From Shigella phage 75/02 Stx: a stretch of 60,875 nucleotides of DNA. Below are positions 19,615 through 20,914 of this stretch, piece by piece. Location: sequence record KF766125, one strand, 5' to 3'. Numbering within the stretch: the first letter of the stretch is position 1; every line of letters starts with the position of its first letter. The notes under the pieces are model-generated. The model searched no databases and was not told where the DNA came from. It was given only the letters and a program-made list of their open reading frames with translations. A program made the position numbers and the translations under genes.

Positions 19615-19746
19615 CAGGAGGCGTTTGCCGTTCACTATGTGAAGTGTGTCAATTTGTGAGCGTTATGCTGTTTACTTTATAGTTGCGGAACGTAAGAGTT
19701 ATCCTCCTGCTAAGCGCAGAGATGCAACAATGAACAGGGGGGCAAA

Positions 19747-20340
19747 ATGGACATTGAAGATTTTCTGGAGGCAGAAGACAATGATCTGTCTCTGTGGAAT
19801 GATGATATTTTAAGCATTGACTGGTTCGTTATTCTTAGAGAGCTGTTGAAATATCAGAGAAGACTAAATATCACCCATTCAGAATTAGTTTTGCTGGCTA
19901 ATTTGGTTTCATTTCACCAGAATGTGGATTCGCAAATATTACCGTCAATATCTCTTTTGGCTACCAGAATGCACGCCTCCCGAGCCATTATACAAGGACG
20001 CCTTCAGGAATTGGAGGGGAAAGGAATGTTGCAGAAGATAAGTTACGCTCAAATCGGTCATGATGATGATTTGCGGAACGTCTATGACATCAAGCCATTA
20101 ATTCGTAAGTTAATTGGGGTGCAGAAAACCGAGAATGATAAAAAGCACACTTGCCCCGTCTGTGGAAAAGTAGGTTCCTCTGATGAAGAAATTGAGAAAT
20201 TTTTTGGATTCAGAAAAAGTGGGGATTATAAATGGCCGCAAAGCTGGTGCCGTTCATGCAGAAGCACGAAACAACGCCGACTGAATACATCGCTAATTGG
20301 TAAAAAAAGGCCCCGCAAATCCCCACCAGAGGTGGTGTGA
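19747..20340 (+). CDS. Hypothetical protein with C-terminal CxxC...CxxC
   Basis: 197-aa ORF between Q and stx1; CPVCG...CRSCR; AT-rich. Confidence 0.55.
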   Translation: MDIEDFLEAEDNDLSLWNDDILSIDWFVILRELLKYQRRLNITHSELVLLANLVSFHQNVDSQILPSISLLATRMHASRAIIQGRLQELEGKGMLQKISYAQIGHDDDLRNVYDIKPLIRKLIGVQKTENDKKHTCPVCGKVGSSDEEIEKFFGFRKSGDYKWPQSWCRSCRSTKQRRLNTSLIGKKRPRKSPPEVV

Positions 20341-20452
20341 AGTGTCGCGGAATCCTTGATTCCGTTCCCGATTGAATGGGGTGCTAAAAAGTATTTTACG
20401 TACGTAAAAATCTGCATATCATGATAAGAGTGGTTGCATTGCCACGCAGCCG

Positions 20453-20478
20453 ACCCCGTCGATGAGCGGGGTTTTTTT
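20453..20478 (+). terminator. Intrinsic terminator
   Basis: accccg/cggggt stem, 8-nt loop, T7 tract. Confidence 0.55.
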
Positions 20479-20658
20479 GTACCCAGAATCCTCTGAGCTA
20501 TACGGAAAGTACACAGAAAGGAAGGTGCGACCACAATTAATAACAAAATCTTAAAAATCGCACATGGCACTATTAGTTTTCTAAATATTGTGTATTTTTT
20601 GTATTGCAGGATGACCCTGTAACGAAGTTTGCGTAACAGCATTTTGCTCTACGAGTTT

Positions 20659-20688
20659 GCCAGCCCCCCCCAGTGGCTGGCTTTTTTA
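20659..20688 (+). terminator. Intrinsic terminator upstream of stx1
   Basis: gccagcc/ggctggc 7-bp stem, C-rich loop, T6 tract. Confidence 0.7.
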
Positions 20689-20787
20689 TGTCCGTAACAT
20701 CCTGTGTATCAATAAATGTTGTTGTCTACGTACGTCAAGTAGTCGCATGAGATCTGACCAGATATGTTAAGGTTGCAGCTCTCTTTG

Positions 20788-20810
20788 AATATAATTATCA
20801 TTTTCATTAC
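20788..20810 (+). promoter_or_regulatory. Fur-box-like operator in the stx1 promoter region
   Basis: gaatataattatcattttcattac resembles the Fur consensus GATAATGATAATCATTATC; about 105 bp upstream of stx1A. Confidence 0.5.
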
Positions 20811-20914
20811 GTTATTGTTACGTTTATCCGGTGCGCCGTAAAACGCCGTCCTTCAGGGGGTGGAGGATGTCAAGAATATAGTTATCGTATGGTGCTCAAG
20901 GAGTATTGTGTAAT

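Follow-up and report, generated by a model that had tools for sequence, protein, structure and literature searches.

Control of Shiga toxin expression sets how dangerous the host bacteria are. In Shigella phage 75/02 Stx (KF766125; the whole 60,875-nt stretch analyzed here is referred to as the window), the interval between the antiterminator gene Q and stx1 (19615–20900) was initially annotated as a late leader that contains, beyond the pR′, qut, and tR′ of many lambdoid phages, a 197-aa open reading frame (ORF), two palindromic motifs, and two intrinsic terminators. How much of this arrangement is particular to the phage, and what could the ORF be doing there? All of the annotated features are present in the sequence, at or very near the positions first assigned to them, and tRNAs are absent throughout the window. 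The interval is very probably a composite, in which an accessory module (approximately 19600–20385) is joined to a canonical late control region of the H-19B/933W/Sp15 type (20383–20900). The Q-to-stx1 architecture, comprising the pR′ promoter, StxS leader, and terminator of Stx phages, is already known, and the unusual part is the ORF.

The interval matches previously described Stx phages

Between 19615 and 20900, the sequence is 99.9% identical to Shigella sonnei phage 7888 (AJ279086), and the AJ279086 record already carries the 197-aa ORF (as ORF1) and the second terminator as features. The ORF1 protein is 100% identical and the terminator is the same; there is no difference of substance, and the two are the same element. 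Shigella phage POCJ13 has the same layout but a divergent allele of the ORF (79.7% amino acid identity). Neither the 7888 nor the POCJ13 record assigns a function to ORF1. From 20383 to 20900, identity to approximately 290 Stx phage records is 96–97%, and the features of VT1-Sakai (AP000400) project onto this portion, with the promoter at 20395–20422, qut at 20436–20443, and terminators at 20455–20477 and 20658–20686. The −35 and −10 elements, two hairpin terminators, RNase E motif, and Fur-box promoter all occur as in Sp15/H-19B-type regions. Comparison with other Stx1 phages therefore upholds the ORF as unusual among them, but the rest, from position 20383 onward, is the standard pR′/tR′/Pstx1 arrangement. 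Because the stx1 control region is of an ordinary, experimentally characterized type, predictions made for Sakai-type Stx1 phages should transfer to the 7888- and POCJ13-type Shigella phages.

The late control region is of the Sp15 type

The features of the late region are as follows.

20394–20409, no strand: 16-bp perfect palindrome TTTTACGTACGTAAAA, spanning the pR′ −35 hexamer and the 5′ part of the spacer
20395–20422, plus strand: late promoter pR′ (−35 TTTACG, 16-bp spacer, −10 TATCAT), located by consensus scan and equal to the "putative late promoter" of AP000400
20429–20688, plus strand: pR′ leader, homologue of StxS-L (258 nt in Sp15), 96–97% identical to Stx1 phages
20452–20480, plus strand: promoter-proximal terminator-like hairpin t1 with T7, at approximately +24 to +52 from the pR′ start, listed in AP000400 as a putative terminator
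20659–20688, plus strand: tR′, late terminator and StxS 3′ end, annotated as rho-independent in AJ279086 and AP000400
20728–20735, no strand: second ACGTACGT, containing a BsiWI site, between tR′ and Pstx1
20787–20805, no strand: Fur box over the −10 region of the stx1 promoter (15/19 match to the Fur consensus)
20915–21862 and 21872–22141, plus strand: stx1A and stx1B, respectively (stxA and stxB of AJ279086)

The positions, homology, and conservation reported here, as well as the coding status and fold class of the ORF, come from this analysis; the start site, 3′ end, and StxS function are taken from the literature on Sp15, which is 96–97% identical. The promoter is a homologue of the mapped pR′, lines up with the one annotated in VT1-Sakai, and is unchanged in all eight aligned ORF-bearing loci. 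In Sakai Sp15, dRNA-seq located the pR′ start, with 258 nt separating it from the tR′ 3′ end downstream (PMC7547250); by homology, the start site here is predicted at approximately 20429–20431.

Both intrinsic terminators described in the initial annotation are present as hairpins (20452–20480 and 20659–20688). The t1 stem (20452–20473) is followed by T7 (−14.6 kcal/mol, z = −2.6), and that of tR′ (20659–20681) by T6 (−13.9 kcal/mol, z = −3.1); tR′ was missed by the terminator scan because its loop is larger. By Term-seq, the Sp15 transcript ends 258 nt past its pR′ start (PMC7547250), a spacing that fits only the second terminator, which is therefore tR′. Because the mapped 3′ end lies that far from the start, t1 must be leaky in Sp15. 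The t1 stem of Sp15/VT1-Sakai differs from the one here by compensating changes, and the stem is maintained despite sequence changes among alleles. It is stronger in this allele than in Sp15, and t1 could terminate more efficiently here.

The leader (20429–20688) folds at z = −3.4 and carries an RNase E motif, GUAUU, at 20601–20605. Its conserved 3′ portion is the counterpart of the StxS-S small RNA; the last ~90 nt differ from Sp15 at a single position, and the terminator lies at the ~258-nt spacing. In Sp15, RNase E processing of the StxS precursor yields a small RNA that acts as an activator of rpoS and a repressor of stx1B (PMC7547250). The search for an Rfam 15 family for StxS gave no match within 20429–20688.

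Just upstream of stx1A, the Fur box at 20787–20805 fits the Fur consensus better than any other site in the window, and the segment is identical to VT1-Sakai; the stx1 promoter is thus predicted to be of the Fur-regulated kind. Both routes to stx1 expression that the initial annotation weighed against each other, Q read-through and a Fur-type promoter, are present, but the question has already been studied, and the region has been characterized in Sp15 (PMC7547250).

The 8-mer ACGTACGT occurs twice in the 60.9 kb against 0.33 expected, and at least two copies were found in 4 of 100 shuffles, marginally above chance. The second copy, annotated as a palindrome core at about 20729–20737, does exist, at 20728–20735. 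It is unchanged in five of five aligned Stx1 phages. Whether or not the ORF is present, stx1 loci have it at +331 to +333, but it is absent from ORF-bearing loci that lack stx1. Since it is invariant with or without the ORF and missing without stx1, it belongs to the stx1 cassette and is unrelated to the ORF or the palindrome.

The palindrome is part of pR′

The 16-bp palindrome proved perfect at exactly 20394–20409, and the search elsewhere in the window gave no further perfect copy; a candidate second copy at 20684–20699 has three mismatches and was rejected as not significant. It does not hold up as a free-standing motif, as it contains the −35 hexamer of pR′, and the corresponding site in ORF-less Stx phages holds a 14-bp palindrome. 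The GTAC-centered palindrome is confined to ORF-bearing loci (18/18) and the GATC-centered 14-bp palindrome (TTTACGATCGTAAA) to ORF-less loci (80/80 evaluable). The GATC center of ORF-less phages (VT1-Sakai/Sp15 type) is a Dam site, whereas the center here is GTAC. The Q-binding element of phage 21, two direct 6-bp repeats (TGAGCA), is situated between −35 and −10 (PMC6606751). Here, that position is taken up by the right half of the palindrome, and no direct 6-bp repeats of the phage 21 type are evident in the pR′ spacer (20401–20416).

An accessory module follows a short Q allele

The features of the module and the adjoining Q gene are as follows.

19234–19614, plus strand: antiterminator Q, short allele, 126 aa, ending in DRYVQRL and a stop (Pfam PF06530, E 5e-52)
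19602–19629, plus strand: hairpin across the Q stop codon with a T-rich run after it, probably a terminator for Q (−17 kcal/mol, z = −3.2)
19654–19683, plus strand: weak promoter-like site TTGTGA-18-TATAGT in the conserved non-coding Q-ORF block (9/12 consensus match)
19747–20340, plus strand: 197-aa gene (phage 7888 ORF1) with an ATG start, supported by selection, Pfam, fold, and Cys conservation
20347–20365, plus strand: poorly conserved hairpin past the ORF stop, with no T-run (−12.4 kcal/mol, z = −1.8)

In Sp15/VT1-Sakai-type phages, Q is 144 aa long and its 3′ end overlaps pR′, whereas here the 0.79-kb ORF module sits between the two: a PF06530-family Q lies directly upstream of the late region, though 0.79 kb from pR′ and without overlap. 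The short Q is 89% identical to the VT1-Sakai Q over 125 aa and lacks its 18-aa tail; in the alignment, homology runs to about codon 125 and the sequence beyond is replaced. Relative to ordinary Stx1/Stx2 phages, the module (~0.79 kb) takes the place of the last 18 Q codons and brings with it a new Q stop within a conserved hairpin, a short non-coding block that is also conserved, and the 197-aa gene. It is found directly behind the short Q allele in every case, regardless of the cargo beyond pR′, which may be stx1, tRNAs and TerB, or nothing.

The Q-stop hairpin is well maintained (96% of cells paired over seven distinct sequences, with one compensatory C-G to G-C pair). The non-coding Q-ORF block is 90–100% conserved except in the most divergent locus. 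The hairpin downstream of the ORF varies between loci, two of which carry insertions.

Within the putative DNA-recognition region (residues 91–106), the short Q and Sp15 Q differ at several residues, and the palindrome center differs from that of Sp15 as well; we assume that the short Q is compatible with the pR′ found here. Phage 21 Q (structures 6JNX and 6P18) is a distant relative of this Q (E 7e-7, residues 8–86), and its DNA-binding part gave no alignment with it.

The ORF encodes a winged-helix, zinc-ribbon protein

The ORF is a real gene. Its dN/dS is 0.17–0.42 with dS up to 0.62, summarized as 0.2–0.3, indicating purifying selection, and a G-rich Shine-Dalgarno-like run lies on its 5′ side. 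Purifying selection together with rarity bears out the earlier view of a genuine gene that is unusual at this position. A minus-strand ORF (20226–20642, 138 aa) that overlaps pR′ and StxS was treated as spurious; AP005153 annotates a shorter counterpart, "ORF b69," over this stretch.

The protein consists of a DnaD-N-type winged helix (residues ~14–132), a C4 zinc ribbon (~133–177), and a basic tail. Pfam DnaD_N (PF21984) scored 39.2 bits against a cutoff of 27, and HTH_36 fell below threshold (21.2 bits, cutoff 25). A Foldseek search of the PDB matched the DnaD N-domain structures 2V79 and 2VN2 with probability 1.0 (TM-score 0.60–0.68, target-normalized; 24–28% identity) and also returned generic winged-helix regulators, while a viral fold library returned generic HTH proteins only. 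Matches to replication initiators and helicase loaders in PHROG were weak. The zinc-ribbon-like motif noted at the C terminus is genuine: its four cysteines, in CPVC (residues 136–139) and CRSC (residues 168–171), are unchanged across all aligned homologues. The N-terminal winged helix is shared with DnaD, but the zinc ribbon at residues 133–177 replaces the DnaD C-terminal domain, for which there was no Pfam match; lacking a DnaD/DnaB-type C-terminal domain, the protein is not filed as a DnaD. The succession of winged helix and zinc ribbon resembles TFIIE-alpha by analogy only. NCBIfam holds no family for the ORF, and the anti-phage defense families of PADLOC gave just one weak, meaningless match. 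The function of the protein is most likely sequence-specific DNA binding.

The gene is rare and related to genes of small plasmids

The ORF was found in 19 of 5,426 complete E. coli genomes, and in every case it is linked to both the short Q allele and the GTAC-centered palindrome. The module gene occurs in Stx1 phages of Shigella and of several Shiga toxin-producing E. coli (STEC) lineages. The initial annotation had reasoned that absence or disruption of the ORF in relatives would speak against it; most relatives lack the ORF, and 3 of 17 carriers have a disrupted copy. It is dispensable for the regulatory logic of the region, yet intact copies are under purifying selection.

Homologues of the ORF are accessory genes on small ColE1-type plasmids of enterobacteria (for example, NZ_CP026574.2, 2,959 bp). 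These plasmid HTH proteins have the same two-domain architecture, are 38–41% identical to the ORF over 86–96% of its length, and share with it the invariant motif H-x-C-P-x-C ... F-G-x-R ... S-W-C-x-x-C-R. No function is assigned to them in the examined records. Upstream of the plasmid genes lies a perfect 42–48-bp palindrome, and downstream of most of them are arrays of 11–33-bp repeats; the phage ORF has neither. When genome contigs were searched for the zinc-ribbon motif, only one full-length relative was found, and most of the other matches were small zinc-ribbon proteins of archaea, Clostridia, and Myxococcota with no relation to the ORF. The motif TAAGAGT, found both on the 5′ side of the ORF and where pR′ starts and resembling the half-sites of two plasmid palindromes, is no more than a lead, as its three occurrences in the window against 4.4 expected do not exceed chance.

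Discussion

By analogy with Sp15, pR′ would fire constitutively, and its transcript would run past the leaky t1 and end at tR′, yielding a StxS precursor of ~258 nt that RNase E would trim to a small RNA, activating rpoS and repressing stx1B. After induction, Q would load at pR′ and take RNA polymerase past both terminators to stx1AB and the lysis genes, and the Fur-box promoter near stx1A would give iron-regulated, Q-independent expression.

We infer both the expression and the target of the ORF. Since pR′ lies downstream of it, the ORF belongs to the early side or is autonomous. Its position upstream of pR′ makes co-transcription with Q on the early transcript most likely; the ORF would then be read during lytic growth, as part of the N-antiterminated early rightward transcript.

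A possible but less probable explanation is that the ORF is a moron, transcribed from its own promoter at ~19654–19683, insulated by the Q-stop hairpin, and expressed in the lysogen, with a role in, for example, exclusion, host regulation, or plasmid interference. The conserved hairpin immediately 5′ of the ORF would suit such a unit, as would a promoter-like site in a block that is 90–100% conserved in most loci next to an ORF that diverges by 20–25%; the GC content is 40–44% compared with 46–50% in the nin/Q region, the downstream cargo is variable, and the homologues are accessory genes of small plasmids. However, the candidate promoter matches the consensus at just 9 of 12 positions, and the final T of its −10 is lost in three of eight loci. 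No canonical terminator lies beyond the ORF, where the 20347–20365 hairpin lacks a T-run, and a perfect long palindrome, a probable operator, precedes each examined plasmid homologue but not the phage gene.

We consider it unlikely that the ORF protein binds the GTAC-centered palindrome at the pR′ −35 element and modulates late and Stx1 transcription, with ORF, short Q, and palindrome co-adapted. The co-occurrence of palindrome and ORF is perfect in both directions (GTAC with the ORF, 18/18; GATC without it, 80/80 evaluable), and the Q alleles split likewise. In addition, the palindrome is the sole perfect one near the ORF, 54 bp past its stop; the plasmid homologues adjoin perfect palindromes; and the protein has a winged helix. 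Against this, the three features are adjacent and the homology breakpoint with ORF-less phages falls at the palindrome, so linkage alone accounts for the association. Moreover, ORF-less phages keep a palindrome at the site, which is therefore not dependent on the ORF, and the plasmid palindromes are 42–48 bp long and unrelated in sequence. Equally doubtful is the broader proposal that the late switch has this protein as a third component, produced alongside Q and binding the palindrome or another site in the leader. It seems similarly improbable that late-gene, StxS, and Stx1 output would thereby be tuned and that a co-adapted cassette of short Q, ORF, and palindrome variant moves between prophages as a unit. 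If the ORF acted on late transcription, differences between strains in Stx1 output could be due to it; if it has no such effect, it is one more accessory gene.

That the ORF is a Rep/DnaD-like replication initiator for a second, cryptic phage origin is very unlikely. The DnaD_N match above threshold, the sub-threshold HTH_36 match, and the weak PHROG matches to initiators and helicase loaders point that way, as does the 41% identity of the ORF to the main or sole annotated CDS of 2.7–5-kb plasmids with 11–33-bp repeat arrays. However, five of the six examined homologue plasmids carry ColE1-type RNAI, two of these also Rop, so a Rep is not needed, and no iterons or tandem arrays were found near the ORF, in 19400–20700 or nearby; on these grounds we rejected this explanation. 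The DnaD C-terminal domain is also missing from the ORF, and the phage has its own initiator and DnaC-like loader (10267–12102). The ORF is not a paralogue of that initiator (10267–11352), to which it is unrelated, and MOB-suite rep clusters fail to track the plasmid homologue gene.

The original framing of the ORF as the first gene of the late operon, within the Q-dependent leader, fits its location between Q and stx1 on the same strand but is highly improbable, as the only homologue of the mapped pR′ (20395–20422) lies downstream of the ORF and the Q-ORF gap contains no pR′-, qut-, or tR′-like sequence.

The most likely placement thus remains that on the early transcript with Q. The ORF has been conserved at the protein level, and a specific Q allele and promoter variant go with it.

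The 197-aa ORF is a real gene upstream of the late promoter

The 197-aa ORF reported in the initial annotation is present between Q and the Q-dependent late promoter, pR'.

19747–20340 (+): ORF, ATG start, 197 aa, with a G-rich ribosome-binding run

Intact 197-aa orthologs share 71%–98% amino acid identity, and pairwise Nei-Gojobori dN/dS was 0.17–0.42 for every appreciably diverged pair (dS 0.07–0.62); the sole higher value came from the frameshifted allele of IMG/VR contig L049 compared with a near-identical relative. Pfam DnaD_N matched at 39.2 bits (cutoff 27), with HTH_36 sub-threshold. 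The AlphaFold2 model (mean pLDDT 70.5; 85–90 in the winged-helix core and 75–83 in the zinc ribbon) gave TM scores of 0.60–0.68 against the DnaD N-terminal domain structures 2V79 and 2VN2. Eleven residues are invariant down to homologs with 24% identity (His134, Cys136, Pro137, Cys139, Phe153, Gly154, Arg156, Ser166, Cys168, Cys171, and Arg172); the four cysteines bear out the zinc-ribbon-like motif noted initially. By its orthologs, dN/dS, and Pfam match, the ORF is a real gene, but it was not classified as DnaD because the DnaD C-terminal domain is absent. A minus-strand 138-aa ORF (20226–20642, −) overlaps the ORF 3' end, pR', and the StxS small RNA leader and is probably spurious; AP005153 carries a shorter minus-strand ORF in the same stretch, annotated as hypothetical "ORF b69."

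Q and its surroundings are ~88% identical in nucleotide and 89% in protein sequence to those of VT1-Sakai and the Morioka Stx1 phage as far as approximately Q codon 125, where homology breaks, resuming at ~20383. The Q of ordinary phages has 144 aa, and its final codons extend into pR', whereas here Q is 126 aa (...DRYVQRL*) and is followed by a ~0.79-kb module that carries the ORF. Since 54 bp separate its end from the palindrome holding the pR' −35 hexamer, the ORF lies upstream of pR', not inside the Q-to-stx1 late leader as initially proposed. The Q stop codon sits in a hairpin loop; the seven distinct sequences compared keep 96% of cells paired and include one compensatory change, C-G to G-C.

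19602–19629: hairpin with the Q stop codon in its loop, −17 kcal/mol, z = −3.2

The 1,286-bp interval (19615–20900) matches Shigella sonnei phage 7888 (AJ279086) at 99.9% identity; that record names the ORF "ORF1, hypothetical protein" and marks the second hairpin as a rho-independent terminator. Of 50,697 phage records, 7888 and POCJ13 alone cover the whole interval; in ~290 Stx1 and Stx2 phage records the match is limited to 20383 onward (90%–97% identity). The ORF is a real, rare, annotated, and uncharacterized accessory gene. No tRNA genes were found in the window.

The regulatory region from 20383 is that of known Stx1 phages

Alignment with the VT1-Sakai annotation (AP000400), hairpin prediction, and a Fur consensus search placed the following elements.

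20395–20422: putative late promoter (AP000400)
20436–20443: putative Q-utilization site (AP000400)
20455–20477: putative rho-independent terminator 1 of the pR' transcript (AP000400)
20658–20686: putative rho-independent terminator 2 of the pR' transcript (AP000400)
20452–20473: stem of terminator-like hairpin 1 (t1) followed by T7, −14.6 kcal/mol, z = −2.6
20659–20681: stem of terminator-like hairpin 2 (tR') followed by T6, −13.9 kcal/mol, z = −3.1
20787–20805: Fur box, 15/19 to the Fur consensus, best match in the entire window

A promoter scan independent of annotation found TTTACG-16-TATCAT at 20395–20422. Both terminators described initially were recovered as hairpins. In Sp15, the Sakai Stx1 prophage, the pR' start mapped by dRNA-seq and the 3' end mapped by Term-seq are 258 nt apart; the StxS-L transcript is constitutive in lysogens and is cleaved by RNase E at a GU/AUU motif at +173 to give a stable 74-nt small RNA, StxS, that activates rpoS and represses stx1B (Sy et al., 2020, PMC7547250). 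Counting 258–259 nt back from the end of the second terminator reaches 20429–20431, 7–9 nt past the −10, and the first terminator ends only ~50 nt from this inferred start; the mapped tR' therefore corresponds to the second terminator, with hairpin 1 predicted to lie inside the StxS leader. An RNase E-type GUAUU motif is present at 20601–20605, and over its last ~90 nt the leader has a single mismatch to Sp15, located in the loop of the terminator. The pR' start, tR' 3' end, and StxS function are putative here, transferred by homology from Sp15. As judged by alignment, the architecture from 20383 is already known, having been experimentally dissected in a 96%–97% identical phage. Every element listed in the initial annotation was found, so the observation holds; its interpretation was partly right.

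The ORF is linked to a Q allele and a palindrome variant

The 16-bp palindrome TTTTACGTACGTAAAA was confirmed at 20394–20409 as the sole perfect copy in the window, and the pR' −35 hexamer falls within it. Its counterpart in ORF-less phages, such as VT1-Sakai and the Morioka Stx1 phage, is the GATC-centered 14-bp palindrome TTTACGATCGTAAA; with the GTAC center of the ORF-bearing allele, the −35 region loses a Dam site. The sequence around the −35 and upstream spacer reads as a palindrome in the two pR' variants alike, suggesting that promoters of this family share a conserved site for protein binding. The Q of phage 21 is a distant relative, and its binding element is located between −35 and −10 (PMC6606751). 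That position is taken here by the palindrome's right half, but in phage 21 the element is a direct repeat.

The second ACGTACGT core noted initially is present at 20728–20735. Two copies of this 8-mer compare with 0.33 expected in the window, a marginal excess (two reached in 4/100 shuffles). The second copy, at +331 to +333 from the palindrome, is invariant among Stx1 phages whether or not they carry the ORF and missing in ORF-bearing prophages without stx1; by this distribution it is part of the stx1 cassette, and the comparison gave no sign of function.

Of 5,426 complete E. coli genomes, 19 carry the module, each as one chromosomal copy; the pR'-StxS region was found 1,182 times, spread over 686 of the 5,426. 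In all seven ORF-bearing loci with annotation inspected, the ORF directly follows the 126-aa Q, and the content after pR' varies: stx1AB, tRNAs plus a TerB-family gene, or an esterase gene directly. An IMG/VR pattern scan with the pR' core gave 98 loci, which were pooled with loci fetched earlier. The ORF was upstream of the GTAC-centered palindrome in 18/18 loci and of the GATC-centered form in 0/80 evaluable loci, proportions that are not frequencies because 7 of the 18 were fetched for carrying the ORF. Among loci with a readable Q motif, Q has residues GT/K/Q and a short tail with the ORF, and TC/R/H and a long tail without it. The ORF, Q allele, and palindrome are adjacent and homology breaks at the palindrome, so linkage is sufficient to explain the association, which gives no support for binding of the palindrome by the protein. 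Only this strict linkage to Q allele and promoter variant, and the position of the ORF upstream of pR', merit experiment.

Within the module, alleles diverge most in the ORF interior (66%–90% nucleotide identity), whereas the Q 3' end, the 19584–19683 block, and pR' are ~100% identical in several of the same pairs, a pattern that indicates allelic exchange via recombination in the flanks. Absence or disruption of the ORF in relatives had been raised initially as grounds against the initial observation. The ORF is absent from most relatives, and hence dispensable for the Q-pR'-stx logic, and is disrupted in 3/17 evaluable carriers, but its dN/dS marks a real gene.

E. coli 06-00048 (L007, 4146–4738): ORF split by frameshift
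IMG/VR contig L044: ORF 5'-truncated
IMG/VR contig L049: ORF 3'-frameshifted

Plasmid homologs and expression of the ORF

Besides the phage orthologs, tblastn found full-length homologs (38%–41% identity) only on small enterobacterial plasmids of 2.7–5 kb, and more distant and N-domain-only matches on plasmids down to 2.3 kb; on some, the homolog is the only annotated CDS. A perfect 42–48-bp palindrome lies upstream of the plasmid homologs and, in most, arrays of 11–33-bp direct repeats lie downstream, forming an uncharacterized module of small ColE1-type plasmids.

Plasmid L112: palindrome 718–763, repeat array 1768–1932
Plasmid L113: palindrome 2441–2489, repeat array 3507–3667
Plasmid L114: palindrome 676–725, repeat array 1852–1951

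This layout suggested an iteron-type initiator, which was rejected: ColE1-type RNAI is on 5/6 plasmids examined and Rop also on two, so Rep is not needed; no repeat array lies near the ORF in the phage; and the phage replication module (10267–12102) encodes its own 362-aa DnaD-like initiator (PHROG 1701), unrelated to the ORF, followed by a DnaC/IstB-like loader. We retain the minimal reading of a putative sequence-specific DNA-binding accessory protein. Separately, TAAGAGT occurs upstream of the ORF (19693–19699) and in the pR' start region (20425–20431), a lead only, since its window-wide count shows no excess over chance. The operator-like palindromes of plasmids L113 (2441–2489) and L116 (617–661) contain TAAGAGTAGTT, compared with TAAGAGTGGTT at pR'.

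The ORF would share the transcript of Q, started at the early rightward promoter and carried past the Q-stop hairpin by N antitermination. Autonomous expression is possible from a promoter-like site at 19654–19683, but this matches at 9/12 and its −10 lacks the critical last T in 3/8 loci; unlike the plasmid homologs, the phage ORF has no operator-like palindrome upstream. Co-transcription with Q is the likelier route.

Downstream of stx1B, Rfam matches to STnc100 (22220–22418, +; 141 bits) and an AgvB-like anti-sRNA (22414–22473, −; 56.6 bits, barely reaching the gathering score; AsxR matches more weakly) are consistent with small RNAs reported flanking stx1 in Sp15. Elsewhere, a 12-nt tandem repeat, AAATCGATCATG, is present in 4.4 copies at 28346–28398.
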